The notes under the pieces: model-generated
The model's database searches: none
Told to the model about the DNA's origin: nothing
The model's input: only the letters and a program-made list of their open reading frames with translations
Translations under genes and position numbers: made by a program
NCBI GenBank assembly: GCA_963662465.1
Contig: OY759599.1
Coordinates: 6,688,001-6,752,000, forward strand
Direction of reading: 5' to 3'
From: Desulfatiglandales bacterium
GTDB lineage: Bacteria; Desulfobacterota; DSM-4660; Desulfatiglandales; Desulfatiglandaceae
DNA length: 64,000 nucleotides
Shown here: one piece after another, positions 45,771-64,000 of the stretch
How positions within the stretch are numbered: the first letter of the stretch is position 1
Layout: each line of letters opens with the position of its first letter

Positions 45771-45857
45771 GCCGAAGTGGCGGAACTGGTAGACGCGCTA
45801 GGTTCAGGGTCTAGTGAGCGAATGCTTGTGCGAGTTCGAGTCTCGCCTTCGGCACCA
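45771..45857 (+). tRNA. tRNA-Leu(CAG)
   Basis: Acceptor GCCGAAG/CTTCGGC-ACCA, D-loop TGGTAGACGC, anticodon loop TTCAGGG, long variable arm, GTTCGAG. Confidence 0.96.
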
Positions 45858-45902: not shown

Positions 45903-45996
45903 ATTAGTTCGTGTTCAGGGTAACATTTCGGAAAAACACCTCAAGGTTTTTAACAGTCTGGTGAGTATCGTCCATATCAACTGTGTTGGTGCCCCT

Positions 45997-46269
45997 ATGA
46001 AAATTGTTAGCGTAAACCAGTTTCGCTCAAAGATGAAGAACTTTGTTGAACAGGCGGCCAGTGCGCACGTGCCACTTAAAGTAACTCGCCGTAGTGGGGG
46101 CGATTTTATTGTAATGAGTGCGGAAGATTGGGAGCGTGATCAGGAAACCCTTTATATTCTCCAAAATTCCAGCCTGATGAAGCAAATTTCCGAATCTGCT
46201 TGCACGCATGTAGAGCGTTCCGGTTACACACCAACGGATGGAGAAATAAATGAGATCCTTGGTGTTTGA
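45997..46269 (+). CDS. Phd/YefM-family antitoxin
   Basis: VSVNQFR..VTRR..VMSAEDWERDQETLYIL. Confidence 0.88.
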   Translation: MKIVSVNQFRSKMKNFVEQAASAHVPLKVTRRSGGDFIVMSAEDWERDQETLYILQNSSLMKQISESACTHVERSGYTPTDGEINEILGV

Positions 46270-46271
46270 AG
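46250..46271 (+). pseudogene. 5' stub of a probable Txe/YoeB toxin (MRSLVFE)
   Basis: ATG overlaps the end of the antitoxin gene; sequence switches to intron DNA at 46272. Confidence 0.6.
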
Positions 46272-46663
46272 AGTTGATCCAATGGATGACTTAGGTGCGC
46301 CCTCTACGCCGGTGGTACAACAGTTCCGTGCAGGCAGTTGACAGACCTGCAACCTGACCATATCCGCTGACACTGGGCAGCGGCATAAGACCTATTAATC
46401 TTCGTAGGTCCTTCGCTTGTGATCGACGCTTAAAGACATTCAGATACCTTCACCATATCATCCGACCCTGGCCCTTAACCGGGGAGGATTCCCGGAGGGG
46501 TTTTCCTGTCACCATTCAAACCCAATTCGGTACGTTGTCCGCAGGGCTTCACACCCCGTCATCAGCGCAACGGCAGCATGCCTGCGTAGGGTCCGGTAGG
46601 AACATACCGGGTACTACATGTAACTACATGAATACACTCAAACTATGCGACTTCGTGTCGCAA
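46272..46663 (-). mobile_element. 5' fragment of a group II intron (same element as the one at the window end)
   Basis: Begins TTGCGACACG right after attC GTTATA; 46272-46333 is identical to 63939-64000. Confidence 0.8.
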
Positions 46664-46748
46664 TATAACGACAAGCTCACCAGCGCCTCCTCCGGCCCCC
46701 GCTGGGACCGCCGAAGTATCAGGCGTCTGGTGGAGCGTTTGGTTCGCA
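46663..46748 (-). repeat. attC site 1
   Basis: Minus strand TGCGAAC-CAAAC-GCTCCACCAGACGCC...GGCGCTGGTGAGC-TTGTC-GTTATAT, with extrahelical bases. Confidence 0.88.
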
Positions 46749-47102
46749 GCAATAATTCTATCTGCTGCTAAATTCCTTACGAAGCGACCGCACAACCTTG
46801 TAGTTGGCTGACGCATGGCTATATTGACTCGCTTTGTGTCAGTGGCCTTAAATTTGAACAATTCCTATTTTGAAATTAAAAACGGCGTTATAGGGTCGAA
46901 AATGAGCCCTTTTCAAACACAAAAGTTTTTAGTTCTAGCCAGTTAGCGTAGGTGAACCAGATTCAGCCGATTCAAATTGGGAATCTGAAACGAATCTCTA
47001 TTTTATTTTTCTTTGGTCAAGGTGGTGTCCCACCTTATATTATCGGTAGGCAATTCGGTGCTTATGTTCATTTCCTTCCCACTGTTAAGGTTTTCTCCAT
47101 CA

Positions 47103-49108
47103 CGCATAAGTCTAAATGTTGTGGGGTTTACTCTAACATATTGAAATTATTTCATCTGTTAAACGGTTCCGAATCAATATCCTAATCAAAGCGCATTTCG
47201 TGAGGCCAAACATTTTTTCCTGAATTCGCCTTAGCGGAAAAAAGTTAGGGACTTTTTTTGATAAGTGTGCATAATCATAGTGCAACAGTCTATGTTAAAT
47301 TAGAGAGGTTGCACATGATTAATAATATTAAGAGAGCTTTGACAATGTTGGACAAAGCTCAAAACAGACTTGCAAGACAATGTTATTACGATCCAAAACA
47401 GTATCCTGAGATTTTCTTTGAAATTGAGAAATGCATTAATGCCATCAGATCATGGATCAATGAAAGGGAGATGTTTCAATCATTGCAATATTTTTATGTA
47501 ACATTGTCTGCTCTTATTGATGAACTTGGTAGGTTAATAAGTCAATTATGGGATATTTGTAAGCCAATAAAAGGGAAAAAAAGCATTCCAAAAACACAAC
47601 GGGATCGACAGAAAATTAGAATCTTTTATTCAATTCGTTCAATGATAAGTAATATTACTAAAAAATTGAATAATGTAAAAAGTCGTGATAGTACAATCAG
47701 TATTGCATTTGAGATAGGGATGTTAAAATCTTTTGATAAATCCATAATCGAAAATGTAAAAAAGAAAATGGAAGACCTTGTTTCTAAACGAGGAAATCAA
47801 ACATATATCTTTCCTTATAATAACACCGAAAGCTATCATGCTCTCGTAAAAGATAGTAAGAAGTTTCGCATTGAAGTATTAGATAAACTCGATAAATATG
47901 ATCACCACACAGGCCATAATTCAACATGTTCTGGACCTAAAGAATATGTTTTATCTGGTTTCCACGGGAATCCTCGAAAAACAATAATGAATGGAGGAGA
48001 ACAACAGACATTCCCAATCCGCATGATACAATGCCGGAAGTGCAAACAAAAGTTCTCTCTTGTTCCCAGCTTTCTCCCAAGGGAAAAGAATTTTGGTATA
48101 GAGATTATTGGGCACGTATTTCGGAATATGTACCGTTTTAATGCGAGCATTCAAGGAGCCATCGAAAGCCTTAAAATTATTGGCAAAAAAAGTGTCAAAA
48201 GCAAACAAACCATCTTGAACTGGAATCGATGGGCAGGAACACTTCATCCTGCAACAATACTAACAAGAGCAGGAGTGAAAGGCTCAGGATATCTACAGGA
48301 AGATGAGGGCTTTGAAAAAGAACCAAATTTAAGAACTTATTCTGTAGTTATGGTCGATCCTGAAAATTTATTAGTATGGCACTCCGATTATGTTGATCAT
48401 GTTGATGAAGAAAACCTGTGCGGTTCATTTGAGGATTTTTTGCAAAAAATCGACTTCAAAATCCTTGGTGTAACAAAAGATAAGTGGAAAGCCTCAACCA
48501 ATGCTATCAAGACCGTATTCCATAACATTTGGGTCGGATATTGCCATCGTCATTGTTTGAAAAACTTCTACGATGCACTATCAAAATATCAAAAAGAATC
48601 AAAATGTACCGACCAAGAAGTGGACAAGTTTTATAAAAAATTTAAGAAAGTTTTGAAAACATCCACATCTAAAGTTAACTTGGAAGTAAAGATTAAGGCA
48701 TTAGATGACGATGCATTTTCTCATCCATTACTAAAAAAGAGGGTAGTAGAATTAAAAGAAAATGCCACTCATTATACCTCTCATAAAAATAGAAATGGGA
48801 TAAAACAAACAACCTCCATTGTTGACAATTATTTAAAAGGAATCAAACGTAAACTAAAACAAATTGAGAGTTTTCGAGATAAGAAATGGGCAAGTCTTTT
48901 CTTTCGAGCACATGCGACTATCAGGAATTTTGTCCCATTTTTACCTGGCGCAAAAAATGCTCATAAAAGTCCCTTTGAATTAGCCAACGGCCAAACATTT
49001 GACTTACCTTGGATTCAAGTTATGAATGTTCATAATGCATTCTTGTTTACCGAAAACGCCTTTTAATTTTGATGGGTTATACAACCCCACAACATTTAGA
49101 CTTATGCG
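47103..49108 (+). mobile_element. Insertion sequence, 2006 bp, 26-bp TIRs, 8-bp TSD
   Basis: CGCATAAGTCTAAATGTTGTGGGGTT inverted at both ends; CTCCATCA at 47095-47102 and 49109-49116. Confidence 0.93.
47258..49066 (+). CDS. DDE transposase, family uncertain; true start may be downstream (MINNI)
   Basis: Zn-finger CRKC, QEDEG, VTKDKW, YCHRHC, TTSIVDN; lies between the TIRs. Confidence 0.85.
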   Translation: MISVHNHSATVYVKLERLHMINNIKRALTMLDKAQNRLARQCYYDPKQYPEIFFEIEKCINAIRSWINEREMFQSLQYFYVTLSALIDELGRLISQLWDICKPIKGKKSIPKTQRDRQKIRIFYSIRSMISNITKKLNNVKSRDSTISIAFEIGMLKSFDKSIIENVKKKMEDLVSKRGNQTYIFPYNNTESYHALVKDSKKFRIEVLDKLDKYDHHTGHNSTCSGPKEYVLSGFHGNPRKTIMNGGEQQTFPIRMIQCRKCKQKFSLVPSFLPREKNFGIEIIGHVFRNMYRFNASIQGAIESLKIIGKKSVKSKQTILNWNRWAGTLHPATILTRAGVKGSGYLQEDEGFEKEPNLRTYSVVMVDPENLLVWHSDYVDHVDEENLCGSFEDFLQKIDFKILGVTKDKWKASTNAIKTVFHNIWVGYCHRHCLKNFYDALSKYQKESKCTDQEVDKFYKKFKKVLKTSTSKVNLEVKIKALDDDAFSHPLLKKRVVELKENATHYTSHKNRNGIKQTTSIVDNYLKGIKRKLKQIESFRDKKWASLFFRAHATIRNFVPFLPGAKNAHKSPFELANGQTFDLPWIQVMNVHNAFLFTENAF

Positions 49109-49654
49109 CTCCATCACTTCGAATAAAACCAGCACGTGTATTGAACTTAATTTCAGCTATCTCGGCCCCTTTTAAGGTCCCTCGAATCATTTCATAGGTC
49201 TCGACCGGGTAATTCCCGTTTTGTAAACTGCCCATAACGAGGTCCCCTTCCTGAGTTATAGCTATGGTTCCATTAAAAGTCTTTCCGCAAGAACTCTTTG
49301 TAACAGCGTGCCACATACCGGATAGGTTATAGACTAATGCTCCATTTGGAAGTTTAACCGTATTCGGCATATCAGCATTTAGTCTTACTCCATCCCGCAT
49401 GGCGGAATTGCAGGCAACACCACATAATAAGATGAAGAAACCCATGACAAACCATTTTTTCATTTTAGACATGCTCCTTTCAGCTAAGACTGGGATCGAA
49501 AAACAATTCTACCATTCAAAATATCTCATTAGAATTTTATTGACAAAAATATTGTAAGAGAGAGCGGGGAAAGGTAGATCACCCCCCGCCGCCGCCTCTC
49601 TTTTTAAAACCGGAAAACTCTTCAACAAGGTCACTTCAGAACCGCAAATTAAAA

Positions 49655-50206
49655 TCACTTTCCAGGCAGGCTATAGGTTGCCGTAACCTCCACAAGAGCA
49701 TCACCTTTGCTTTCTCCGGCGAAGGGTTTGAGCATCCTGACCTTAAAGGTATTCTTTCCCTGAATGCCTTTGAACCGGCCCGTTCCGCAAATATATTTCC
49801 CCGTCCCATGTCCGGCTGGAAGTTTGCCTTCTTTGAGCTTTGTCATAACCCCTTCTACTTTTACCAGAGCCGTAGATCCATCTTTAAAGATAAGCTGGGA
49901 ATATCCCTGAAAGGTTCCCAGTCCCCGAACTATATCAAAGGTACATCTCAGAAGTTGCTTGGCTTTCTCGCCGTCTTCATATTCCACATCGCCTTGGCGC
50001 TCATAAAAACCGATGACCCGGCCCGGTGAATCCGGTATGGGTATGGCCTGCATCTTGGTAATCCAGTTATTGACCTTGAAATTACGGGTTACTTCGCCAG
50101 CCTGCACGACGGATGTCAACACACACAGTGAAATGACGAGGGTCATGAAGCACAGTGCCCATGGATTCAGAATTCCCCTGCCGCTGTTTCTACCTGTAAT
50201 GTTCAT
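49655..50206 (-). CDS. Exported hypothetical cassette protein (beta-rich, GTGRFKG motif)
   Basis: AGGAG RBS; signal peptide ending VQA. Confidence 0.75.
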   Translation of the reverse strand: MNITGRNSGRGILNPWALCFMTLVISLCVLTSVVQAGEVTRNFKVNNWITKMQAIPIPDSPGRVIGFYERQGDVEYEDGEKAKQLLRCTFDIVRGLGTFQGYSQLIFKDGSTALVKVEGVMTKLKEGKLPAGHGTGKYICGTGRFKGIQGKNTFKVRMLKPFAGESKGDALVEVTATYSLPGK

Positions 50207-50404
50207 GCTAGTTTCTCCTTTTCCCATTTTTCAATTGTGGTTTAACATTTTCTGAGCCGCATGATCGAATTTCCTTTTTCATCACCTCCCTTTTCCTATG
50301 AATTCTCAAAAATCTGCGAAAATATTACCCATGGCGCAGTCTTGTTGACGGGTCTGACCGTCAACATTTTTTGGTTTCGCGAAAATGCTACTATCACCGC
50401 GAAC

Positions 50405-50491
50405 GTTTAACGACAAGCTCACCAGCGCCTCCCACCGGCCCCCGCCAGGACCGCCCAAGTATCAGGCGTCTGGTGCAGCGTTTGGTTGTGC
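50405..50491 (-). repeat. attC site 2
   Basis: GCACAAC-CAAAC-GCTGCACCAGACGCC...GGCGCTGGTGAGC-TTGTC-GTTAAAC. Confidence 0.9.
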
Positions 50492-50707
50492 TGCGGCCAG
50501 TTTCCCTAGATGCACTGTAGATAGTGAGTTCGAAAAAGCTATAAACATTGTATTTTCTTTGGCTTGGCGTATTAAAACAGTTTTCCACGCTACCAATTGG
50601 GACAACCCACAAAAATCATTTTTTGGATGGACTTGGCATTTCACCAAGCCCATCCTTGTCAAATTGACGTCTATCTGCCTATTAAAGCGGGAGAAACTGC
50701 GTTGCAG

Positions 50708-52036
50708 CTACTCAACAATTGCCGCATTTACAGCGTTATTTACCTTATAACCCCATGGTAAACCTGCTCGTGGAATCTGCGACATGAACATTACCACTGT
50801 CTCATCGACGGGATCATTGAACCAAAGCGTACTCCAAAAACCTCGCCAGCCATAAGCACCTTTACCGCCGTAGCAATCGTTAAGGGCATTCATCTTTTCG
50901 TTTTTCTGTATATCCACACAATATCCCCATCGATTGTTTGTAAAATAATTTCGGAATTCATGACCCTCTGGCACTTGAATAGTAGTCATAAGTTTGACTG
51001 CTTGTCGGCTCAAAATGCGCACCCCGTCCAGTTCCCCCATATTCAACAACATTTGGGAGAATCTGTAGAAACCATAGGTGGTGCCATGCAAACCGCCTCC
51101 TGCTGCAAAGTAGGCCTTGTTTTTACCAAATGTGTAAAGCGATCCCAAAGCTACCGGTCCCATGGACCATTCTTTTGTTGCTTTCACAAGCGTACCAGGT
51201 TTGAGAAAAATAGCTGGAATTCTCGGAAAAACATTTTCTGGAGGATAAAACCAGAAATCTTTTATCTTCAATGGGGTAAAAATGTTCATTTCCATGTATT
51301 GATCAAGGGGTTTCCCGGAAAGTATTTCAACCAGATAGCCCATAACATCTGCGGCACCCTGGCTATATCCCCATCCTTCTCCCGGCTGAAAGACAAGGGG
51401 GCATTTGGCGAGAGCTTTAACATTCTTCTCCAGATTCTTAGTATAGGTCTCGCTTAACATATCCTGAACGCCTTCTTTGACAAAGCATTTTCCTACGTAG
51501 GCATGAAGGGGGCTCATGCGCATCAGCATGGTCGCTGAAATACCGCTTGTAAAGCTCAATAAATCCTGAATCCGAATTTCACGCTTTGCGGGCACCAGTT
51601 TGATCTCGCCTTCCGCATCCATCTCTGCCACTTTCATACTTTTGAATTCGGGAACATATTTTGAGACCGGATCTTTGAGCTGAAACATTCCCTGATCCCA
51701 CAATTGCATCAAGGCGACTGCTGTAATGGTTTTGGTCATAGAAGCCAATCGGAATATGGCATCCGTTTCCATGGATTTTCCTTCTTCTGCTTCACCAAAG
51801 GGTTTGAAGTAACAAATTTTGCCATGTCGGGCTACCAAAACCACTGCTCCTTTAAAAAACTTCTGCTCAAGTCCTTTTTTGACCACCTTGTCTACATTTT
51901 CGAGCATTGCACTTGATATGCCCACAGTTTCAGGGGTTACAACCTTTATCTCCTGAGCGAATGCTATTGTGGTTGAAATCAGCAGACTAAGTAAAAATAC
52001 AACTATTATTCGGGTCATTTCTTTGAGTCGTTTCAT
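50708..52036 (-). CDS. Serine hydrolase, beta-lactamase-related family (cassette gene)
   Basis: Signal peptide; FRLASMTK (SxxK), LLSFTSG, QPGEGWGYS, YGWRG. Confidence 0.9.
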   Translation of the reverse strand: MKRLKEMTRIIVVFLLSLLISTTIAFAQEIKVVTPETVGISSAMLENVDKVVKKGLEQKFFKGAVVLVARHGKICYFKPFGEAEEGKSMETDAIFRLASMTKTITAVALMQLWDQGMFQLKDPVSKYVPEFKSMKVAEMDAEGEIKLVPAKREIRIQDLLSFTSGISATMLMRMSPLHAYVGKCFVKEGVQDMLSETYTKNLEKNVKALAKCPLVFQPGEGWGYSQGAADVMGYLVEILSGKPLDQYMEMNIFTPLKIKDFWFYPPENVFPRIPAIFLKPGTLVKATKEWSMGPVALGSLYTFGKNKAYFAAGGGLHGTTYGFYRFSQMLLNMGELDGVRILSRQAVKLMTTIQVPEGHEFRNYFTNNRWGYCVDIQKNEKMNALNDCYGGKGAYGWRGFWSTLWFNDPVDETVVMFMSQIPRAGLPWGYKVNNAVNAAIVE

Positions 52037-52373
52037 ACAAATTCTCCTTAATGATTTCTTTTAGGTTTTCTTAAGGTTGGACCTGTCCCGTTTCATGTAT
52101 ATGGGCACAGTTACCATGATAGTGGAGATGTTTAGAAAATATTTTATTCCATTGTCACCTCCTTTCCATTTCAAATTCGTACAGAAATAGAACAAAGATG
52201 CAACCTCATTTTTGTTTACGAAAAAAGCTGTAGAAATTAACAAAAGTAGAGGTGATCCCTATGCCCCCCTAATGAAACAACCCACAATCTTGGGGTTGAC
52301 ATATGCTGAACTGTCGTTCATTACATCTGTTCTCCATACGCCGTTTTGCTGCCTTACTTCTTTTTCGGAGGGG

Positions 52374-52459
52374 GCACAACGACAAGCTCAGCGGCCCCTC
52401 CACCGGCCCCCGCCGGAACCGCCAGACTTCCAGGGGTCCGCTGAAGCGCCTGGTTCGCC
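52374..52459 (-). repeat. attC site 3
   Basis: GGCGAAC-CAGGC-GCTTCAGCGGACCCC...GGGGCCGCTGAGC-TTGTC-GTTGTGC; its R' is complementary to R'' of attC2. Confidence 0.9.
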
Positions 52460-52480
52460 AACCCCGGTTTTCTTAAAAGT

Positions 52481-52693
52481 TCAGCCAGTTGCAGCAATTT
52501 TTTCAGACTGTTCATCTAAAGCTCTGAGCGTTTCTTGGATAGCTATTACTTCCGTCTCATCAAAATAGGTCTCACCGCATTGGCTGCATACCCAAGCAGG
52601 AATTCTATCCATAGTGAGATGGTATCCCTTCCGATCAACATGAAAAGGAGCAATGCCTTTTTCCATCTTTCCTTGACAGTAAATGCAGTTCAT
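52481..52693 (-). CDS. YgiT-type zinc-finger protein (MqsA-like antitoxin)
   Basis: MNCIYC..IPAWVCSQCGETYF. Confidence 0.88.
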   Translation of the reverse strand: MNCIYCQGKMEKGIAPFHVDRKGYHLTMDRIPAWVCSQCGETYFDETEVIAIQETLRALDEQSEKIAATG

Positions 52694-53019
52694 GATCGTT
52701 TCCTCTTTTTGAAATCTGATTCCCATTCGCGGGGATTGGGAATATACGCTGTAATGATGGCCAGGTAATCAGTTTTAGGCGAGCAAACGATGTGTATTGA
52801 GCGACCGTCTACACCCTGCCCCAAAATCAGGCAGCTATGCCCTCGCGAATCCCCCGGATAATCCTCAACCAATTCACCTTGCTCCACTGCCTTTCTAACA
52901 TCAAGGGGACTTATCATTCTGTCCGGTCTGGACATCTGCCGCACAGCATGCGGGAGGTAAATGATCCTCTTCCCCGCACTCTCTCGGGCTGACTTTATGG
53001 TATCAGAAACTTCATTCAT
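52690..53019 (-). CDS. DUF4258-family protein (putative toxin)
   Basis: HAVRQM, EDYPGD..SCLILG, IHIV, ITAYIP..W; 4-nt overlap with the zinc-finger gene. Confidence 0.85.
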   Translation of the reverse strand: MNEVSDTIKSARESAGKRIIYLPHAVRQMSRPDRMISPLDVRKAVEQGELVEDYPGDSRGHSCLILGQGVDGRSIHIVCSPKTDYLAIITAYIPNPREWESDFKKRKRS

Positions 53020-53186
53020 AACAGACTCTCAAGAAATTAGTGGCGCGAGATAAAATCTGGATCCAGTTTTCCAATTTTGATATTAAATTGGGCATCCCAA
53101 TCCTTCTGAGTATAGACTTAAACGTATGCCATTGGGCGATAATGAAGGATGAAAGGATGCAATAATGTCAGCACGCACCATGCTTC

Positions 53187-55100
53187 TCATTTCAATCCTG
53201 CTTTGTGAAGACCCACTGTTAACTGTTTCCGGATAGCCTCATCTTTATAAGATGCAACAAGATGGCTGATACACGCGAAAGAAAAATCTGGATTTATTTC
53301 TATCACTTTCGACACTTCAAAACGAGTGCCGTCTTCGTCTCCCAAAATCGCATAAACAAAAGCAAGAAATATGTGACCATATAAAAATTTTGGTGCAATT
53401 TGAATTGCACTTTCAAACGCAGAAATCGCTTCATCATACCTGCCGAGTCTCGTATAAGCCCTTCCAAGAACGGTAAAATACCAGGGAGGAGGTAAAGGAT
53501 TTAATCGAAGTGCTTTTTTCAGTGATGTTAGTGCTTCATTAAATTGGCCAATTTTGAATAGATAATAGCACCGAATTACGTAAATGTCCGGCCAATTGGG
53601 ATCCATTTTGATGGCCTTATCGAACTGTTCTAAAGCTTTCTCATCCTTTCCCACAAAAGTATAAACAGCGCCCATTGTTTCGTGAGCAAAAGGACAGGAG
53701 TTATTTACGGTTAGAGCTTTTTGGGCGAGTTCAAATGCTTTTCCGATTGATTCCTTCGGAGTTTTACTCACGCACATTCCCACTTCGGCCAAATAGCCCC
53801 AAGCGAGATAGGCATATGCTGCCCCATAGTTTGGATCTAGTTCGATGGCTTCCTGGCATTTTTGCATGGATAATTTGTTTCCCTCCACATCCCCCTGCCA
53901 ACCGTAATACATAGCCTCAATGAACTTTAAATAAGCACCAACATTATTTGTTCCTCTCGCGCAAGGACCTACACCGATGCCACCAATTATCTTGATATGA
54001 AGAGATTGCGATATTTTTAATGCAATTTCATCTTGTAGGTCGAATATATCGTTAATATTGCGGTCATAAGTCTCCGCCCAAAGATGATTGCCATTCTTAG
54101 TATCAATGAACTGGGCCGTCACACGTATCCGATCCCCAGATTTCTGAATGCTTCCTTCAAGTACATAATGAACATTTAGTTGCTGTCCCAATTCTTTAAT
54201 ATTTACGGGCTTGCCCTTAAAGGTAAAGGTCGTGTTACGGGCGGTAACGGAAAGGTCTGGAATTTTGGCAAGTACAGTAATGATATGCTCTGTGAAACCA
54301 TCGCAAAGATATTGTTGTTTTGGATCGCCAACCATATTGGTGAAAGGCAGAACAGCGATAGAATTCTTCTCAGACATTGGGTTCAGCGGTTTTTTCGCCG
54401 AATCAGACGAAATGCTTTTGAGGGGTGATTTAGCGTCTGTTGGAAGTGAGTTTTGGTTTGGATAAAGACGCCAAAATGCAAGAGCAGCTCCGAGGATTAC
54501 AAGAACAACCATCACCACGACTTTTTTTCTCCCCAATTTCAATTTTCTTTCCGGTTCTGCAGCATCCTCGTGATCTAAGGATATCTTGTAAACCTTTATC
54601 GGTTTAGCGATATTCTTTACTGTGTGCTTACCAATAAAATGAAATCCTAATTCCAACTTGTTTTCGATTTGCTCATAACCGCTTCCAGAAATACAGATTC
54701 CACCACCATCAGCCAATGATTCGATCCTAGCAGCAATGTTTACTCCGTCACCGTAAATGCGATCAGCATCTTGAATAACATCGCCAAGGTTTATGCCCAT
54801 TCTGAAAATCATCCTGCGATTTTCAGGCAGTTCCTCATTCTTGTCCTTCAGAGCTTTCTGGATTTCAACCGCACACTGGACAGCATCCACTACACTGGCG
54901 AATTCAGAAAGAATATTGTCACCGGGAGAATCCACCACACGCCCGCTGTGCCTTTGGACGATTGCAGAGAAAATTTCGCGGTATTCAGTAATGGTTTTGA
55001 CCGTGGCAATCTCATCGTCGCCCATGAGGCGACTATAGCCTTGAACATCTGCGCTAAGTATGGCTCTGAGTTTTCTTACAACTCTATTTGGTTCCATCAC
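53187..55100 (-). CDS. Class III adenylate/guanylate cyclase with TolB-like and TPR domains
   Basis: ILSADVQGYS, SPGDN, YGDGVNIAARIE, SIAVLPF, YVLEGS, TPRs. Confidence 0.9.
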   Translation of the reverse strand: MMEPNRVVRKLRAILSADVQGYSRLMGDDEIATVKTITEYREIFSAIVQRHSGRVVDSPGDNILSEFASVVDAVQCAVEIQKALKDKNEELPENRRMIFRMGINLGDVIQDADRIYGDGVNIAARIESLADGGGICISGSGYEQIENKLELGFHFIGKHTVKNIAKPIKVYKISLDHEDAAEPERKLKLGRKKVVVMVVLVILGAALAFWRLYPNQNSLPTDAKSPLKSISSDSAKKPLNPMSEKNSIAVLPFTNMVGDPKQQYLCDGFTEHIITVLAKIPDLSVTARNTTFTFKGKPVNIKELGQQLNVHYVLEGSIQKSGDRIRVTAQFIDTKNGNHLWAETYDRNINDIFDLQDEIALKISQSLHIKIIGGIGVGPCARGTNNVGAYLKFIEAMYYGWQGDVEGNKLSMQKCQEAIELDPNYGAAYAYLAWGYLAEVGMCVSKTPKESIGKAFELAQKALTVNNSCPFAHETMGAVYTFVGKDEKALEQFDKAIKMDPNWPDIYVIRCYYLFKIGQFNEALTSLKKALRLNPLPPPWYFTVLGRAYTRLGRYDEAISAFESAIQIAPKFLYGHIFLAFVYAILGDEDGTRFEVSKVIEINPDFSFACISHLVASYKDEAIRKQLTVGLHKAGLK

Positions 55101-55230
55101 CGGCCTCCAAGATAATTGAGACTGAAAAAAAGACTATGAGCAGGGCTGTACATATGGATTGTATCTATAATACGAAACGAATCTATAAATGCCAAATACC
55201 AAATTTGGGGGTTCTACGTCTTTGAAGGCT

Positions 55231-57353
55231 CTCACGGTAGGAACGCCGGTCACCCAGCGCCCCCCGCACAGTCCCGGACGTGCGGTTTTCCCGCATCCGG
55301 TTCCTCGGTTGTACTCGCTTTCGCGCAAAGCATCAGCATTAGCAAAACACCTTTCGTGGCCGGGGTGCCGTCGGTAGCTTCGGTTTGGCGATCCCCAGGC
55401 GATTTATGGCCCGGTTGAAAGCCTTCCAGGTGAAACTTCTCCGCTTACCCCCTCTTCGGTTCAGCCACTTAAACGCACAATCACTCGCCCATCGGTAAAA
55501 ACGCCATAACGAATTGGCGTTCCCCACCACGCTGTAATAGTTGTAATGTCCGCGCAGTTTGCGGTTGAGCGTCTTTATGAACGCAATCCCCTTCAAATGT
55601 CGGTTTTCCTTCACCCATTCCTTGATGCGCCTGCAGGCACCCTGCAGCTTTTTACGGCCGGTGCGCTGCATGACTCTCACCTTTCCCTGTTTGTCATAGG
55701 TCCAGTAGGTCTCAAAACCCAAAAAGACAATCCGCCTGCGCATGCTCGGATCAAAACGACTGAATCGCATCATGGCGGTTTTATCAGGCGCTACACTGAG
55801 GCCAAACTTCAAAAGCCTTTCGGGCAGCACGTGGAAAAACCCTTTTGCCTCTTTTTTGTACTGAAAAGCACAGACAAAATCATCTGCGTACCGAATGATC
55901 ATGGCGGCCCCTTTACAGTGGGGCTTCACCACCTTTTCAAACCATAAGTCAAGGGCAAAATGCAGGTAGACATTGGCCAAAACCGGCGATACAATCCCCC
56001 CTTGGGGAGTACCGCTGTCCGGATGGATAATTTTGCCATCCGTATCCAGAATGCCGGCTTTAAGCCATTTTTGGATCAGATTTAAAAACGGCGCATCATC
56101 AACTCTTTCCATGAGCATTCGCATCAGCCAATCATGGTCCATATGGTCGAAAAAGCCTTTGATATCGGCCTCGACGACATATCCATATGATCCAAACTGA
56201 AGTTCAAAACGCAAATCATTGACAGCGTCTTTTGCGCTTCGGTTGGGCCTGTAACCATAGCTGACATTCAGAAAGTCAGCTTCGAATATGGCTGTCAGGA
56301 GTTTGGCACATGCCAATTGCACCAACCGGTCTTCAAGGGCCGGAATGCCCAAGGGGCGTTGTTTGCCGTTTTCTTTGGGGATGTAACTTCTGCGTACCAG
56401 TTTGGCACGGTAACGTCTGGTTTTCAATCGCTCCGCCAATGACGCGATATTGGCCTCAAGATTTCCTTCGTAGGCCTCGGCCGTCACTTTGTCCACACCA
56501 CTGGCTGCATCCTTATTCAGGTCTTTCCAGCAGGCACGGAGAAACGGCGCGTTCAGACACCGGTAAAGGTCTTGAAAGCGGTGTTTTCCATCAACTTTTG
56601 CCTTAATGGCTATTCCCTGCAGTGAGGTTGGCTCGTATTGTTCCAGCCCTACATTGTCCGGTGCGAGTTTCCTTTGCAGACTGCGTACTTCCGTCAGGTC
56701 CTTCCCCATGTGGTGGGCTTTCCCCACCGCTGAGTAGTATGCCTGATAAGACACCCCATTGGCGTATAGAGGGCCATCGGAGGTCCGATTTTCCTCCCAC
56801 CCGGTTGTTCCTTTCAGCATTTCGGCTGTGTAGTGAACCACTGTTACTTTACCTCACCGTCAGTGTGAAATAAACTCCCTGGAGCCTTTGGGGCTTCCCG
56901 AGTTCTACGGCGCATCTCTTCCTGCATGCCACGGCCTGAGGACTCCGGCGGACCTCCACATCCTCGCCATAAACGGATGCTTCCGTGTTGCCTTCGGTGA
57001 ACGTTCAAACCCTCGGCGTCCGCAATTGCTATTTCGAAGCTGTACCAGCACTTCAGGGTGCGCGATCACCCCTGCGGCCTACAGGATACTCTGCCTACGC
57101 TTAACCCATCTTGTTCGCTGCTTCCACCGTTAGGTGGGGTGAGTCCATCCGCCTATTTGCTCATCCCTGAGCGCGGCTCGTTTCCAACCAGCATATGAAT
57201 GCCGATGTCCTACACCTGACAGACTGAACAACTCCGCCATGGGTCCAAGGCTCGATACGGGTGGGTGGCTAACCCTTACAGAAAGCCATTACTGATTTTC
57301 CTCCCGACAGGGACTTTCACCCTGCAAGATACGCCGAGCTTTCCTCGGCGCGA
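55231..57353 (-). mobile_element. Complete group II intron with RT/maturase, inserted after GTTC of attC4
   Basis: 5' TCGCGCCGAGGAAAGCTCGGCG..GGTGAAAGTCCC; DV GAACCGGATGCGGGAAAACCGCACGTCCGG; DVI ending CCTACCGTGAG; boundaries good to about 1-2 nt. Confidence 0.88.
55339..56841 (-). CDS. ltrA: Group II intron reverse transcriptase/maturase without endonuclease domain; true start uncertain, probably near 56630
   Basis: RPLGIP, ADIKGFFD, PQGGIVSPVLAN, RYADDF, LRGHYNYY. Confidence 0.93.
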   Translation of the reverse strand: MVHYTAEMLKGTTGWEENRTSDGPLYANGVSYQAYYSAVGKAHHMGKDLTEVRSLQRKLAPDNVGLEQYEPTSLQGIAIKAKVDGKHRFQDLYRCLNAPFLRACWKDLNKDAASGVDKVTAEAYEGNLEANIASLAERLKTRRYRAKLVRRSYIPKENGKQRPLGIPALEDRLVQLACAKLLTAIFEADFLNVSYGYRPNRSAKDAVNDLRFELQFGSYGYVVEADIKGFFDHMDHDWLMRMLMERVDDAPFLNLIQKWLKAGILDTDGKIIHPDSGTPQGGIVSPVLANVYLHFALDLWFEKVVKPHCKGAAMIIRYADDFVCAFQYKKEAKGFFHVLPERLLKFGLSVAPDKTAMMRFSRFDPSMRRRIVFLGFETYWTYDKQGKVRVMQRTGRKKLQGACRRIKEWVKENRHLKGIAFIKTLNRKLRGHYNYYSVVGNANSLWRFYRWASDCAFKWLNRRGGKRRSFTWKAFNRAINRLGIAKPKLPTAPRPRKVFC

Positions 57354-57482
57354 GAACGTTTTAGTTAACAGGCGAACGGGCAAGAAAGAAATATGCGACC
57401 AATCCACCCGGAAGCGTGATACGGAAAAATCAATTTCAATTTGCTCCAATGACCAGTTTGCCTGTTCAACGGCTGGTTGGAC
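57351..57482 (-). repeat. attC site 4 (longer, unrelated central region)
   Basis: GTCCAAC-CAGCC-GTTGAACAGGCAAAC...GTTCGCCTGTTAAC-TAAAAC-GTTC, canonical 5/6-nt spacers. Confidence 0.85.
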
Positions 57483-57742
57483 AGACCCGCGGGTCACACG
57501 CACATAGGTTAATGGGAGCAGGATCGCCGCTATGGAGATTAAACGATCTTTGCAGCTACCGCATGACTTCTTTTTGACCCATCATTCCGGCCTAAGCCAG
57601 TTAAAAATGATAAAATTTCTTTTTTTGATCGCATGGTCCCGCTAAAAATGCCAAAATATCGTGTTATTAGGCAGTTTACCAAACACCTCGACATCAAAAA
57701 CCTTTCACTCGACTAAAGACCTTTCGACTGCGCATGCTTAAT

Positions 57743-58918
57743 CTATGCTGCTTGGGCGTGTATCATGTCCTGGACTTTATTGAACCTCGGAAGCTCTCTT
57801 AACTTTTTGACCGGCGTCAATATTTCCAGAGTTATGAGGCGTTTCCCGCAAACAGGGCAACAATCCGGTCGCTCGTCGCTTCGCTGTTGCCAGAGACTCT
57901 GCCAATCCAGGAATCCCAGACTTTCAAGAGGCGGTTGACCCAGTATTTCCCGGCAGAGTGCCAGTTCTTCTTTTGAGCTGTGATGATAGAGTTCGTATGA
58001 ACGCACCATCACGGTATTTGCTAGGGGGACGTGTTGCAGATAGCGGCTGATAAAGGTTTGAATCGGCAGGGAGATGAGTTTTACCTTCTCACGACCGTAA
58101 TTGAAGGTCACGTTCCCGTTTTCAATGCTGTAGATGCGTTTGTTTGAAATTGCTCCGCCTCTCAAGTAACGCGCCAGGTAAATCAACACGCCTTCACCGT
58201 ATGAATAGGTCTCTTTGAGCTTGACGTTCCATTTTTTGCGGCGGCCCAGTTTATTGAAGAGGTTCCGGGCCTGCTGAGGCCCCATACCCTCGGGCAGAAC
58301 CAGTTCGTTCCGATCCAGGGCTTTTCTCAAATAGTAGAGGTACTTGCCTCGAAATACCGCCCGGACGATGCCAAAGGGCAAAAGGAATTTTTTTGATGAA
58401 GCGATCCACTCGCCGGCGATCAGCCCACCGGCCGTTACCAGACAATGCAGATGCGGATGAAAGTCCAGTTTTCGGCTCCAGGTATGCAGTGAGGCGATGA
58501 TGCCGACTTTGCCCCCCAAATGCTTCGGATCTCCAAGGAGTTCGGAAAGGGTTTCAGTGGCGCTTTTGAACAGCAGATTGCCCATAAGCTTGCGGTTCAA
58601 CCGCCATAAGTCGTGCAATTCATCGGAGATGGTGAAAATAACATGGAAATGTTCGGTGTTTAAGATGCGAGCCTTTTGTTTTGCCAGCCAACGTTCCACC
58701 TGGGTAAAAGCGCAGAGGGGGCACATGCGATGTTTACACGAGTTGTACCAGTGCCTTTTGAAGTGACCGTCCGGGCACGCCTGCACGTGACCCCCCAGAG
58801 CAGATGTGCGGCAACTCATCAGACGGTGTGCCGCTTCACGAATATGTTCCGGAAGAAGATGGGTCTGATCATAGAGGGCATAGCCTATAAGAAAGATGCT
58901 CTGAATCGTCGCTTCCAC
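57743..58918 (-). CDS. IS91-family (HUH, Y2) transposase carried as a cassette
   Basis: CRTSALGGH..YNSCKHRMCPLC, HFHVIFT, HTW..HPHLHC, YLARY; AAGGAGG RBS before GTG. Confidence 0.92.
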   Translation of the reverse strand: MEATIQSIFLIGYALYDQTHLLPEHIREAAHRLMSCRTSALGGHVQACPDGHFKRHWYNSCKHRMCPLCAFTQVERWLAKQKARILNTEHFHVIFTISDELHDLWRLNRKLMGNLLFKSATETLSELLGDPKHLGGKVGIIASLHTWSRKLDFHPHLHCLVTAGGLIAGEWIASSKKFLLPFGIVRAVFRGKYLYYLRKALDRNELVLPEGMGPQQARNLFNKLGRRKKWNVKLKETYSYGEGVLIYLARYLRGGAISNKRIYSIENGNVTFNYGREKVKLISLPIQTFISRYLQHVPLANTVMVRSYELYHHSSKEELALCREILGQPPLESLGFLDWQSLWQQRSDERPDCCPVCGKRLITLEILTPVKKLRELPRFNKVQDMIHAQAA

Positions 58919-58978
58919 TGAAACCTCCTTTATTTACTGGGAGTTACGACGTTAGTTCCCCCGCTGTCCAGCGGGTCT

Positions 58979-59064
58979 GTCCAACGACAAGCTCAGCGGT
59001 CCCTCCACCGGCCCCCGCCAGAACCGCAAGACTTCCAGGGGTCCGCTGAAGCGTTTGGTTGGCG
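58979..59064 (-). repeat. attC site 5
   Basis: CGCCAAC-CAAAC-GCTTCAGCGGACCCC...GGGACCGCTGAGC-TTGTC-GTTGGAC. Confidence 0.9.
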
Positions 59065-60338: not shown

Positions 60339-60386
60339 GCCGGGTAGCCGGGGGATGTTGCCATCCCCGAGCCCCCTCAGAACCAC
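60339..60386 (-). mobile_element. 3' end (end of DV plus DVI) of the group II intron split by the recombinase element
   Basis: Minus strand GTGGTTCTGAGGGGGCTCGGGGATGGCAACATCCCCCGGCTACCCGGC. Confidence 0.85.
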
Positions 60387-60775
60387 TATATAATGCCCAT
60401 CAAAACCAGTTTATAACTTGGGTATATTACCCATTTCACCCAAGAACCGGTGAAGAAATTTATGTGGTAGGTACCAGAAACCATCGTGGAGAAACTTGTT
60501 TTGTAACAAAGAAACCTGATGGTCGCCATGAATTGATACCTGCGTGGATGACCAATCCAAAGTATGAAAAGATATCCCTCGGCTCAAAACCCGCTATCGA
60601 AATCAGGGCGCTTAAGAATTTATATTGCTTAATAGTGAATAGAAAAATACCGTTTCCTCCTGATGAAGTCAATTCGAAAACAAGGAGGAAAGATGACGAA
60701 ACAAAAATATCATCAACTTCGGCTTTGGGATTATTTACCATCACCGATCGAAATTCCAATAGAAACACGAAATAG
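60387..60775 (+). CDS. Headless accessory ORF of the LSR element (resembles Y4bD/DUF5372-type proteins)
   Basis: YNAH..YPFHP.TG....IPAWMT motif; the natural RBS+ATG appear to lie at 63516-63531; family assignment is from memory of the motif. Confidence 0.7.
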
Positions 60776-60854
60776 ATTGATTGATTTCCTTGCAGAGCTT
60801 CTGTCAGGTTTCTGGCAAAATTCTGAGGGTAACAGAAATAGAAAAGAGAAGTAG
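60693..60854 (+). CDS. Small accessory ORF (MTKQKYHQLRLW...LAELL)
   Basis: AAGGAGG RBS; lies upstream of the LSR. Confidence 0.6.
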   Translation: MTKQKYHQLRLWDYLPSPIEIPIETRNRLIDFLAELLSGFWQNSEGNRNRKEK

Positions 60855-61053
60855 TTTCACTAACGTAAAATCGCGGTCTGATATTGGAAGCAGTCAAGAG
60901 ACTGGAGTTGTTGAAGCAAGCAGCTTAATCCGACTCAGAAAAATCGTAACTATAAATCATAAATAGCTTATTTTCCGATAGAAATAGGTGTTTAATTGAA
61001 AAACGTACGCGGTATTCAAAAATATTGGACGAATTTGAAGGTGAAAAGGAGCG

Positions 61054-61260
61054 ATGAAAATGAGAGGTGGGAGTCGAAAAGGCGCTGGTCGAAAAAGGAG
61101 TCCTGAACATCTGAGGCGTATCCCCGTCACGATTCGGTTACGGAAGTGGATGGTTTCACAGATCAAAATGAAAGGCGAGATAGGGTATTTGATTGAACTC
61201 GAATTAGCGACGAAAAAGGGTTTTCTCGACTTACCAGATGATTATCTGGTCGGAAGCTGA
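61054..61260 (+). CDS. Small basic putative DNA-binding protein
   Basis: AAGGAG RBS; GGSRKGAGRK motif then VTIRL. Confidence 0.6.
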   Translation: MKMRGGSRKGAGRKRSPEHLRRIPVTIRLRKWMVSQIKMKGEIGYLIELELATKKGFLDLPDDYLVGS

Positions 61261-61428
61261 CTAAGGTGCGGTTATGGTCGCTCTTTTAATGGATATTTCG
61301 GCAGGAGCCACCGGAGCCTTCTATGACCTCGTCGCAGCTTACAATTACTCATATGGGGGTCAAAATTCGGTTGTCGCAAGAGGTCAATTTTCGGTTGACA
61401 TTTCGAGAAAAGAAAGGTGGAAATGAGC

Positions 61429-63510
61429 ATGAGCAATAAAATCAATGCTGAACATATTAGTCGGGAAGCATGTATATATATCCGTCAGTCAACACCGGGC
61501 CAAGTTCTACAGCATCGTGAAAGCCAACTTTTACAATATGGCTTGGTAGAAAGGGCAAAAGAATTAGGATGGAACGAGAAAAACATATGGATGATAGATA
61601 GTGATTTGGGAATAACTGCATCGGGATGCGTTGACAGAAAAGGATTCCAGAATCTTCTTTCATCTGTGTGTGAAGGAAGAATAGGGGGTATTTTCTCGAT
61701 TGAATCATCGAGGTTGGCCCGCAACGGTCGAGAGTGGCATACGTTGCTTGAGATCTGTGCACTTAAAAAAACGGTTCTTGTAGATCAAGGAGCTGTTTAT
61801 GACCTAAACGTGTCAAATGATCGTTTGCTCCTGGGCTTAAAGGGAGAAATGAGTGCAATGGAATTGAGCCTATTAAAGGAGCGTTCTCAGGCGGCAATAC
61901 AACAAAAAGCGAAGCGGGGAGAATTATATCTTACTGTACCGGCAGCCTATATAAAGACTAGGGATAATAAGCTGAAAAAGAATCCTGACAAACGAATTCA
62001 AGAAGTCATTGATTTGGTATTCACGAAATTCAAGGAATATGGTACTCTTCGTCGGGTGTATCATTGGTTTTTAGATGAACAGATTGAGATTGCTGTTGTT
62101 TCCAGCGGTAAAGGGGAACGTAGGATAGAGTGGAAACTACCGTCTGCTCATACCTTGTCGCATATAGTGAACAACCCAATTTACGCCGGCGCCTACGTCT
62201 ATGGCCGGACTAAAACAGAGGTAACTTTTGAAAATGGGCGCAAGCGACTGAGGAAGGGTATTCGTAAGGAACAAAAGGATTGGGACGTTTTAATATTGGA
62301 TCACCATGAAGGTTACATCACATGGGAAGAGTACCAGTATAACATGGAGATACTAACTCAAAATACAAATAAGAAAAGGCCGGTGGTGAGAGGAGCTGTT
62401 CGCGGAGGAAAGGCATTGCTTGGAGGTTTGTTAAGATGCGGTCATTGCGGTAGAAAGTTAATTGTACGATACCAAGGCCGTAATGGAACTCATAAACGTT
62501 ATGAGTGTAGCCGCAAACGAGGTAACGAGACAGGAAAGGCGTGTATATCATTTGGTGGATTCCGTGTTGACCGGGCTGTTACGGATTTTCTTTTGAAAGT
62601 ATTATCACCGATAGGATTAGAAGCTTCTTTAGAGGCGATAAAGAAAATCAACCATGAATCGGATTCAGTGAAACGGCAACGGGAACTGGAGTTGGAACAA
62701 GCGCGTTATGAAGCTTTACGGGCAAAACGTCAATACAATGCAGTAGACCCTGATAATCGTTTGGTAGCATCTACATTGGAGAAGGATTGGAATGACGCTC
62801 TTGTTAAGGTAGCAAGATTGGAGAATGAGGTTGACGCCATGGGATCGAACACCCCTTCGCTTTCCCCTGAGGAGGAGACTGAGATCAGAGATCTATCAAA
62901 AGATTTACCTCGTGTATGGAATGATCCGTTTTGCTCTTTGGATTTAAAGAAGCGTATAATCCGGACGGTTATCAAAGAGATCGTTGTTTATTTGGAAGAT
63001 CAAAAGATCAAATTAATCATTCACTGGGAAGGGGGTGAGCATACGGAATTGGAGGTATTGAAGAATAAGTCTTCCAGTTACCCATTGAAAACCGATGTTG
63101 ATACAAAAAAGATAATATCCGATTTGGCTAGAATTATGCCTGATAAACACATCGTGGCCTTTCTCAACCGTGTGGGTACAAAGACTACAAAGGGATATAC
63201 CTGGAATCCGGTAAGGTTGCGTTCATTTCGAAATAGGCATAATATCCCTGTATATCATGAAGGAGAGAGGCAGCGACGAGAAGAATATACGGTAGCTGAA
63301 GCAAGCGAAAGGCTGGGTATTGGCAGCACCAAAGTTTGGAGACTTATACAACATGAGATTCTACCCGCCAAGCGAGTATGTTCCGGTGCTCCATGGATCA
63401 TTTCAAAAAAGGACCTTGAATCTGAAGTGATAAAAAAGGCAGCTCATTCCGGGCTTCCAAAGAGCCCGCTTTCAAGAAACTCAAAACAACAAGTCTTTAA
63501 TTTTCAATAA
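61429..63510 (+). CDS. Large serine recombinase with Zn-ribbon, coiled coil and C-terminal HTH
   Basis: YIRQST catalytic Ser, ESSRLARN, NPIYAG, LRCGHCG..YEC, YTVAEASERLGI. Confidence 0.95.
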   Translation: MSNKINAEHISREACIYIRQSTPGQVLQHRESQLLQYGLVERAKELGWNEKNIWMIDSDLGITASGCVDRKGFQNLLSSVCEGRIGGIFSIESSRLARNGREWHTLLEICALKKTVLVDQGAVYDLNVSNDRLLLGLKGEMSAMELSLLKERSQAAIQQKAKRGELYLTVPAAYIKTRDNKLKKNPDKRIQEVIDLVFTKFKEYGTLRRVYHWFLDEQIEIAVVSSGKGERRIEWKLPSAHTLSHIVNNPIYAGAYVYGRTKTEVTFENGRKRLRKGIRKEQKDWDVLILDHHEGYITWEEYQYNMEILTQNTNKKRPVVRGAVRGGKALLGGLLRCGHCGRKLIVRYQGRNGTHKRYECSRKRGNETGKACISFGGFRVDRAVTDFLLKVLSPIGLEASLEAIKKINHESDSVKRQRELELEQARYEALRAKRQYNAVDPDNRLVASTLEKDWNDALVKVARLENEVDAMGSNTPSLSPEEETEIRDLSKDLPRVWNDPFCSLDLKKRIIRTVIKEIVVYLEDQKIKLIIHWEGGEHTELEVLKNKSSSYPLKTDVDTKKIISDLARIMPDKHIVAFLNRVGTKTTKGYTWNPVRLRSFRNRHNIPVYHEGERQRREEYTVAEASERLGIGSTKVWRLIQHEILPAKRVCSGAPWIISKKDLESEVIKKAAHSGLPKSPLSRNSKQQVFNFQ

Positions 63511-63540
63511 CGTACGGAGGTGTGTATTATGCCGCTATTA

Positions 63541-64000
63541 CCCTCAGAACCACGCATGAGACTTTCACCTCACGTGGCTCAAGCCCCCGAAAAGGTTTCC
63601 CTGGTGGGGATTCCCGCAGATTTGCATCCACTTCACGTTACAGGCCGGCTGTCAGAATAGCCAAAGGCGCACGGGGCGCACCAGCCTCAAGGGCCGTCAT
63701 TCGCCCGTTTCACTGGCTGCTTTCCCCGCTTTCATCTGATTCCTCCGGTGTTCACGTGATCGGGCACCGCGCTGAACGTCTGCCTCCTTACGGAGCCGGG
63801 AATGTTTCACCCGGTATCCGGGCCATTACAGCCCGGCATTCGCTTCTTTCAGCCTCCTATTCCGGCCCGCCAACAGCATGCCTTGCGGTTAGCCTGCCCC
63901 CAAAAGGGGCGACGGGACCGGGTTTCCACGTTCCGCATAGTTGATCCAATGGATGACTTAGGTGCGCCCTCTACGCCGGTGGTACAACAGTTCCGTGCAG
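63541..64000 (-). mobile_element. ORF-less group II intron (DV and upstream domains; 5' end beyond the window)
   Basis: DV GAGCCACGTGAGGTGAAAGTCTCATGCGTGGTTC; only a 12-aa mini-ORF with RBS (63735-63697) about 115 nt before DV. Confidence 0.82.

Follow-up and report, generated by a model that had tools for sequence, protein, structure and literature searches.

Analysis of a 64,000-nt stretch of the genome of a Desulfatiglandales bacterium (GCA_963662465.1, contig OY759599.1; hereafter the window, C1:6688001-6752000, part of an 8.16-Mb single-contig genome) revealed two group II introns, A and B, each inserted in sense orientation inside the R' core of an integron attC site. Our results suggest that two unrelated intron lineages, probably independently of each other, took the top strand of attC as their retrohoming site, by pairing of their exon-binding sites (EBS) with the target. 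Boundaries, registers, strand, covariation of EBS1 with intron-binding site 1 (IBS1) and the independence of the lineages were read from the sequence. The features that carry this finding are listed below; positions without a prefix refer to the window and those with the prefix C1 to the contig.

46272..46663 (-): intron A, 5' fragment, 392 nt of domain I, CL1/IIB1; starts TTGCG after core base 6 of attC1
46664..46748 (-): attC1, R'' TGCGAAC, L'' GCT(C)CACC / L' GGTGAGC, R' GTTATA|intron; bottom-strand hairpin
52374..52459 (-): attC3, R'' GGCGAAC; left border of the duplicated cassette that carries B
55230..57353 (-): intron B, intact, class E-like, 2124 nt, UCGCG...CCUACCGUGAGA; inserted after core base 4 of attC4
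55230..55303 (-): domains V and VI (DV, DVI) of B, AAC triad, 5-nt GAAAA loop; DVI with bulged A
55339..56841 (-): reverse transcriptase (RT)/maturase of B, 500 aa, YADD; only PF00078 and PF08388
57354..57482 (-): attC4, R'' GTCCAAC, L'' GTT(G)AACA / L' TGTTAAC, R' GTTC|intron

Boundaries, registers and landing sites

Both junctions described in an earlier note on this DNA are real: GTTATA|TTGCG, with the start of intron A at 46663 (-), and GTTC|TCGCG, with the start of intron B at 57353 (-), are present in the sequence on the cassette strand. The sites attC1 and attC4 share the architecture R''(AAC)-L''-L'-R'(GTT) with an additional base in L'', and their L boxes match at 7/7 positions once base 4 of L'' is removed. 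The introns had been placed immediately 3' of attC. Their association with attC stands, and their exact place is inside the R' heptamer, after base 6 for A and base 4 for B. The claims of cassette-sense orientation and of landing at the start of the next cassette hold as well, both introns being on the cassette (top) strand, inside the 7-bp R' core and downstream of the G|TT crossover.

The element at 46272-46663 had been taken for an intron. It is of group II, with an Rfam domain at 46471-46611 (RF02012, 79.7 bits), and it is only a 392-nt 5' fragment, 92% identical to a full-length copy at C1:450963. The latter carries the RT open reading frame (ORF) of the family in domain IV, where B has its RT/maturase gene as well; the copies in the window are this fragment and an ORF-less form. 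The RT of copy C1:450963 scored 517 bits against PDB 6me0, which we take to be the RT of a CL1 intron, and other RTs scored at most 143 bits. By eye, the A-family RT resembles the N-terminus of the RT of UHB.I2, an intron discussed below, and the DV triad of A is AGC. Intron B has an Rfam domain at 56933-57146 (RF02005, 57.7 bits), a DV/DVI score of 30.2 bits that lies below the gathering score of 40, and an RT without an endonuclease domain (Pfam). A and B are thus both group II introns, on their Rfam domains and a DV plus bulged-A DVI, with the copy at 46272-46663 limited to domain I. As had been claimed, they are unrelated: one is CL1 and the other class E-like, their RTs are 29% identical (A from copy C1:450963) and blastn found no RNA similarity.

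Intron B ends at 55230 with ...CCTACCGTGAGA, so that the empty site reads GTTC+GCC. This intron-less core, GTTCGCC, is the exact complement of R'' of the downstream attC3 (GGCGAAC), and contigs of three sequencing runs (two samples of one study) depart from the window sequence at 55230 (6, 6 and 3 contigs). A 3' end at 55232 (...CCGTGA) was ruled out by the relatives, by the R''/R' complement and by these contig loose ends. A start at GCGCC, taken from copy B4, was also ruled out, B4 being B split 2 nt in by A. An early-branching relative (L018) has the canonical ends GTGCG..AC at the same register. The domain II/III junction reads TTA in 93 of the 108 loci of B relatives with a motif match. 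By analogy with other classes, the U of this junction could form a pair with the terminal A.

A quick tree of 111 RTs placed B apart from the rows g1, g2, g3/F, class C-type and CL1, and neither A nor B grouped with the class C-type RT of this genome; the tree has long branches and lacked a named class E row, and B is therefore called class E-like here. This assignment leans on the identity, judged by eye, of B to the class E fragment H.ha.F2, with 57 of 89 residues identical over the RT4-7 stretch (hand count). A 5-nt DV loop is a trait of classes E and F (PMC3753933). Other searches with B gave little: the PDB returned no class-level match, plasmids gave nothing above 46% identity among the matches listed, a DNA search of 400 genomes of the phylum gave only three weak matches, and a minimum-free-energy fold of the 5' RNA of B showed no informative structure (z -1.52).

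Inspection of the 5' flanks of all copies in the genome upheld the association with attC. Fifteen of the 16 A-type 5' ends lie behind a GTT core, 11 of them at exactly GTT+3; by site, 12 ends are behind attC, three at an attI-like junction and one behind another intron. A second CL1 family (C) has 10 5' ends, eight behind attC, one at an attI-like junction and one behind another intron, with 9/10 at GTT+3, which brings the CL1 5' ends in this genome to 26. The four 5' ends of B represent three independent sites, all attC or derived from attC. An attC that had been expected near position 64330, just beyond the window, exists, with R'' starting near 64410 and the junction GTTGGC|TTGCG at 64326. 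A profile of the attC family, built from five attC sites within or just beyond the window, found 55 members in the genome; 19 of these 55 carry an intron 5' end (18 CL1, one B), and given this occupancy the association is not due to chance.

The two registers meet in one locus (C1:6379417/6375431), where an A copy stands behind GTTC-TC and its 3' end is followed by GCGCCGAGG. Here a copy of A interrupts one of B 2 nt from its start, and the registers of both, base 4 for B and base 6 for A, are thereby confirmed. In other genomes, CL1 relatives of A start behind GTT in eight of nine cases and insert at core base 4, 5 or 6 according to subfamily (loci L138-L148). A further family, D, whose RT is 39% identical to that of B, uses another box of the site: all five of its 5' ends lie in the top-strand L'' box. 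Its copies, with a TCGCG start, are as follows.

C1:4987997 (+): family D copy
C1:7892174 (+): family D copy
C1:4406706 (-): family D copy
C1:4386239 (-): family D copy
C1:3674890 (-): family D copy
Locus L128: also family D

The single full-length copy of D rebuilds attC exactly, and the EBS1 of D, seen in two copies, matches the L'' box. At locus L060 one attC is occupied at R' by a B-type intron and in L'' by an intron end like that of D. No close relative of D was found in the 400 genomes of the phylum, bar one partial match of 61%. The same array also holds a class C-type ORF-less intron (C1:6765424-6766252) on the bottom strand of an attC. Six further class C-type DV/DVI ends were seen in the genome.

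These registers bear on the proposal that the integron integrase (IntI) integrates a DNA circle of the intron, the intron itself being the cassette. Insertions within 3-5 bases of the crossover would suit it, and a class F intron makes RNA circles (PMC3753933). We nevertheless regard it as extremely improbable: the junctions are not at G|TT and vary by lineage (+4, +6 and the L''-box register in D), they rebuild the core exactly and follow EBS1, and B has no attC of its own at its 3' end.

Pairing with the target and the relatives of intron B

The pairing elements identified in the window are listed below.

46337..46342 (-): EBS1 of A, GUCAAC, complementary to GTTRRY; in a hairpin loop; compared across copies
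46415..46420 (-): ACAAGC, candidate EBS2 of A; complement of GCTTGT, which the host attC family has at -13..-8
57001..57006 (-): EBS1 of B, GAACGU, complementary to ACGTTC
57025..57035 (-): candidate EBS2 loop of B, 3 bp pairing only (B1, B3)

The EBS1 of A (GCUAAC or GUCAAC) pairs at 5-6 of 6 positions in six of the nine copies that have both an EBS1 and a GTT flank (hand count). The EBS2 of A, read by eye, is present in A, A2 and C copies, and EBS1/IBS1 and EBS2/IBS2 pairings of about 6 bp each, a CL1/IIB1 trait, occur in A copies. A compensatory change distinguishes copies of B, with GAACG/CGTTC in B1 and CAACG/CGTTG in B3. In an alignment of 68 introns related to B, the top three covarying intron/exon pairs join EBS1 columns with exon positions -1, -3 and -4. 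EBS1 runs of at least 5 bp were found in 38 of 40 loci with a GTT target and in 23 of 23 with a CATT target; single changes in EBS1 follow the target in L010, L006 and L111 and do not in L119 and L105. Base pairing of EBS1 with the target core is supported by these comparisons. The check that had been asked for, of EBS1 pairing with the R' exon, finds agreement in most copies and in covariation, the A fragment at 46272-46663 falling short as described below.

Searches for relatives of B gave 119 loci, of which 89 ends had a recognisable 5' end and at least 8 nt of flank. Among these, 48 ends lie behind GTTN, four behind GTT, 27 behind CATT and 10 behind other sequences. The attC tests, which used flanks of at least 75 nt with duplicates removed, kept 42 GTT flanks, 19 CATT flanks and a further 10. 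The top form of a Watson-Crick attC test was passed by 21/42 unique GTT flanks and the bottom form by 0/42, compared with 14 of 2000 random GTT sites (0.7%) and none of the 19 CATT flanks. Three strict scanners passed 19, 15 and 21 of the 42 in the top form (nulls 73/1884, 46/1500 and 14/2000). The two of them that tolerate wobble pairs also gave bottom passes, 6/40 before deduplication and 6/42, one of the latter bottom-only. A loose hairpin test passed 31/42 with a null of 125/400 and was discarded as uninformative. Many of the GTT flanks that fail the Watson-Crick test look like attC variants by eye. Cores without the intron were rebuilt for 30 loci: 10 read GTTA|GGC, and in 26 the base following the junction is G. 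Upstream of the intron at locus L056 lie an intI fragment and a first cassette. The members with a GTT target come from Pseudomonadota, Thermodesulfobacteriota, Acidobacteriota, Cloacimonadota and Verrucomicrobiota.

The CATT group forms one clade (SH-aLRT 99) nested among GTT groups, with the attC-type loci L018, L024 and L026 outside it.

L011, L023, L097, L076, L096, L104, L089 and 20 more: loci of the CATT clade, with changed EBS1

For this clade the insertion point is the outer margin of a terminal inverted repeat, in DDE-transposase elements or their miniatures; both inverted repeats were found at seven of the 10 loci checked, with a DDE transposase in three and a miniature element in four. 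We presume these elements, from PF01609, to be of IS4 type. Targeting of attC looks ancestral in the lineage of B, in a sample of relatives that is biased toward those of the query. A relative of B at L010:2038, with its EBS1 altered to fit AGTTA, lies not at attC but at the foot of a short, fully matched palindrome.

A quite different account would be insertion at any IBS1 match with survival in attC, the counts being inflated by cassette duplication and recombination. Copies B1 and B2 are indeed one duplicated cassette, chimeric flanks and tandem copies occur, and some relatives are at GTT sites that are not attC. This account is improbable in our judgement, since the flanks of the relatives are different attC sequences from several phyla, intergenic CGTTN sites, where insertion would be harmless, vastly outnumber attC sites, and throughout the tree EBS1 stays matched to the attC core, shifting with the target in the IS4-end clade.

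Several observations weigh against attC targeting led by base pairing. Four of 15 A junctions are irregular, at one of which, an attI junction, EBS1 pairs poorly; EBS1 and IBS1 match at 3/6 in the A fragment at 46272-46663 and at 4/6 in the nested copy. The 5' and 3' flanks of some CL1 copies do not combine into a single site, as if copies had recombined with each other. A diverged B-like 5' fragment (C1:5641059) is not at attC. Among the relatives of B, 21/42 GTT flanks fail the strict attC test, and those of L010, L020, L063, L064 and L067 look non-attC by eye. Covariation of the EBS2 loop of B is weak, with a mean run of 3.58 compared with 3.18 +/- 0.13 on permutation (0/200 permutations reach the observed value, in a test that did not control for kinship). 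The motif [AT]CGTT[CG]G occurs at 2171 sites in the genome, so that EBS1 alone cannot explain the preference of B for attC. An intron-less B1 allele was not found among the sequencing contigs, and no spliced RNA was seen, the RNA runs having contained at most 0.09 of the words and yielded no usable reads.

Recognition of both the attC hairpin and the R' end had been proposed for these introns. The R' part finds support in the pairing of EBS1 with the core, beside which the EBS2 of A would pair with L' and the spacer. The hairpin part is kept as an alternative, tentative and on balance unlikely, in which, as in IIC-attC introns, the top-strand attC hairpin, or an intron protein binding it, selects the site and EBS1 merely sets the register. 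It gains from the short and common EBS1 target of B, given that all three independent B sites are nonetheless attC or attC-derived, and from the position of L010 beside an unrelated palindrome. EBS2, weak in B, has no role in class E/F splicing in vitro (PMC3753933), and a similar structural role has been speculated on elsewhere (PMC7923331). Set against it are the lack of bottom-strand insertions (0/42), although the bottom strand forms the recombinogenic hairpin, and the IS4-end clade, which has no attC hairpin (0/19) yet full EBS1 pairing. GC skew assigns 29 of the 31 copies of A, B and C to the leading-strand template, which offers fewer single-stranded hairpins. This bias fits homing in which no such hairpin has formed beforehand, but the copies are concentrated in a small number of arrays and do not count as independent. 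Base pairing is thus favoured by the strand specificity, by covariation and by the retargeted clade. The common motif and the weak EBS2 make a further determinant, protein contact or DNA structure, likely for B, and structure-assisted selection may add to base pairing, above all in that intron.

In the reading we prefer, endonuclease-lacking introns of the CL1/IIB1 and class E-like lineages would have targeted the attC top strand independently. The RNA-RT particle would pair EBS1 with the R' core (GYYAAC with GTTRRY for A, UAACG with CGTTA for B) and EBS2 with L' and the spacer, clearly in A and weakly in B, and reverse splicing would follow after core base 6 (A) or base 4 (B). These points being 3' of the crossover, GTT would stay intact and the intron would become the first part of the next cassette. 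Co-oriented with cassette transcription, it would be removable by splicing; IntI, in moving the cassette, would carry the intron along, and ORF-less copies would probably be served by the RT of full-length relatives. Splicing, reverse splicing, trans-complementation and carriage by IntI are inferred here for A and B from their sequences.

Possible carriage on cassettes and the surrounding array

From about 46.6 kb onward the window covers the distal end of a minus-strand cassette array. The intI of this array is at C1:6792755-6793702 (TIGR02249, 453.6 bits against a curated cut-off of 265) and an attI-like junction of the same integron lies near C1:6792517; the array is part of a full integron. 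The cassettes and elements around A and B are as follows.

45961..46271 (+): YefM antitoxin remnant and first codons of the downstream gene, antisense toxin-antitoxin cassette (PF02604, translation)
52460..55229 (-): body of the cassette carrying B, with an adenylate cyclase-TPR gene and a DUF4258 plus MqsA-like pair (Pfam)
57483..58983 (-): IS91-like transposase cassette upstream of B (PF04986, PF14319), multi-copy
60339..60385 (-): 3' end (DVI) of a second, ORF-less A copy
60386..63520 (+): element with a large serine recombinase, inserted in the second A copy between DV and DVI (Pfam)
63521..64000 (-): 5' part of the second A copy, which continues to 64326 behind attC6 (GTTGGC|TTGCG)

Hitch-hiking of introns on cassettes had been suggested. 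It receives support, short of proof, from one duplicated B-bearing cassette and from four CL1 copies at attI-like junctions. Copies B1 and B2 are identical over 5144 bp. The identity begins within the IS91-like cassette upstream and runs to the GTT of attC3, beyond which the two arrays differ, and this places one border exactly at the crossover. Between the upstream IS91-like copies there are 12 differences, and between their attC sites seven; the border at attC4 is masked by near-identical flanks. This pattern is consistent with integrase-mediated duplication of an intron-bearing cassette; homing into an already duplicated cassette or homogenisation in the assembly may also account for it. 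Bases upstream of the four CL1 copies at attI-like junctions do not match EBS2, and these copies are consistent with arrival as cargo.

The A fragment at 46272-46663 is fused to the truncated antisense toxin-antitoxin cassette, a deletion having shortened intron A and cut off the gene downstream of the YefM antitoxin. The second A copy has an Rfam domain at 63512-63582 (RF00029, 45.8 bits). The borders of the serine recombinase element within it are approximate, lying inside a shared 13-nt core, and the element has at least six near-identical copies in the genome. Another element of about 320 bp with terminal inverted repeats (C1:3215916-3216235, 4989423-4989742, 3338457-3338800 and others) disrupts RT genes of three different intron families, at or near the conserved PQGG-encoding motif.

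Other features of the array were also noted. The IS91-like transposase is packaged in integron-cassette form, with inverted ends and a separate attC family, and a tandem run of about eight such cassettes (C1:4412489-4425219) adjoins another intI. A 2-kb multi-copy insertion sequence (IS) at 47103-49109 has inverted repeats of about 26 bp and about 20 near-identical full-length copies; its 602-aa ORF has DUF6431 as sole match. The cassette at 50708-52036 encodes a predicted beta-lactamase-family serine hydrolase (PF00144), and a tRNA gene at 45771-45854, with anticodon CAG by direct reading, adjoins the distal end of the array. GC skew over the whole genome puts the attC bottom strand on the lagging-strand template in most arrays. 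This is the more recombinogenic orientation of attC.

Precedent and significance

Sense-oriented introns at attC had been said to be little documented. The literature agrees, with one CL1 case and two 5'-truncated class E fragments in a single paper (PMC7923331, Sonbol and Siam 2021). The former, UHB.I2, is a CL1/IIB1 intron from a cassette array in a soda-lake metagenome; like A it starts with UUGCG, lacks an endonuclease domain and lies in sense orientation directly behind attC. It is a single case with poor exon conservation, for which a role of the hairpin was speculated (PMC7923331), whereas here 26 CL1 5' ends in one genome share a defined register with EBS1 and EBS2 matches. The two fragments, H.ha.F1 and H.ha.F2, come from a cluster of attC sites lacking an integron integrase (CALIN) in Halorhodospira halochloris (PMC7923331). 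By eye they belong to the same lineage as B, with a matching domain I/II RNA stretch and an integron context. Because both are 5'-truncated, insertion site, register and EBS1 are undefined there, whereas B is complete, both its ends are mapped, and its relatives have GTTA|GGC as their target across the lineage. No further precedent for sense-strand attC introns was found in the literature searched; subscription papers and the group II intron database were outside this search.

The best-known comparison is with the IIC-attC introns, S.ma.I2 and relatives, which insert on the bottom strand in antisense orientation (PMC3001079, PMC4424553, PMC7923331). Like A and B they are attC specialists that insert in an R box beside the crossover. 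They are of class C, enter the bottom strand at R'', use a short IBS1 and a DNA hairpin and block transcription from Pc, as described in these papers. A and B, in contrast, are non-C introns on the top strand at R', in sense orientation and with an EBS1 of 5-6 bp. The DV triads also differ, AGC in A and AAC in B compared with CGC in IIC-attC introns. In the IIC-attC introns a DNA stem-loop takes the place of IBS2; here a hairpin lies upstream, with an EBS2 match of 6 bp in A and a weak one in B. An atypical top-strand IIC intron is reportedly present in Enterobacter cloacae (cited in PMC7923331).

B shares with classes E and F the lack of an endonuclease domain, the 5-nt DV loop and an IIB-like structure (PMC3753933, PMC3552965). 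The available parts of these two papers describe no attC target for those classes, and B differs in its non-canonical UCGCG..GA ends and AAC triad. RmInt2 is reported to home into the inverted repeats of ISRm17 (PMC4615759), the end of a mobile element other than attC, and in this would resemble the IS4-end clade.

Taken from the sequences, the introns described here are a variant of attC-targeting group II introns, with several non-C lineages on the top strand, in distinct registers and led by base pairing. This study adds the target mapped for the class E-like lineage, the junction at which A is nested in B, and the change of target to IS ends. The literature examined ties attC targeting to one class C lineage that uses a bottom-strand DNA hairpin; our results indicate that at least two further intron classes reach attC through the other strand, by base pairing and at different bases.

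A broader proposal, to which we give somewhat less than even weight, is that a widespread class E lineage was ancestrally specialised on the top strand of attC and makes up, with CL1 lineages and the third register in the L'' box, a guild of sense-strand introns that has evolved repeatedly. Its members would leave the site recombinogenic, be spliced from transcripts and use the integrase as vehicle. If this is true, cassette arrays would be a main reservoir of these introns, which would retarget to IS4 repeats through few EBS bases. The attC core, the L'' box and the IS4 end offer a natural series of EBS retargeting, and the intact B opens to testing the suggestion of a structural role upstream of IIB introns (PMC7923331). 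Sense orientation would allow the intron to be spliced from cassette transcripts, and its position 3' of the crossover makes it potential cassette cargo, which bears on the interspecies spread of group II introns and on the tolerance of cassette arrays for large insertions.

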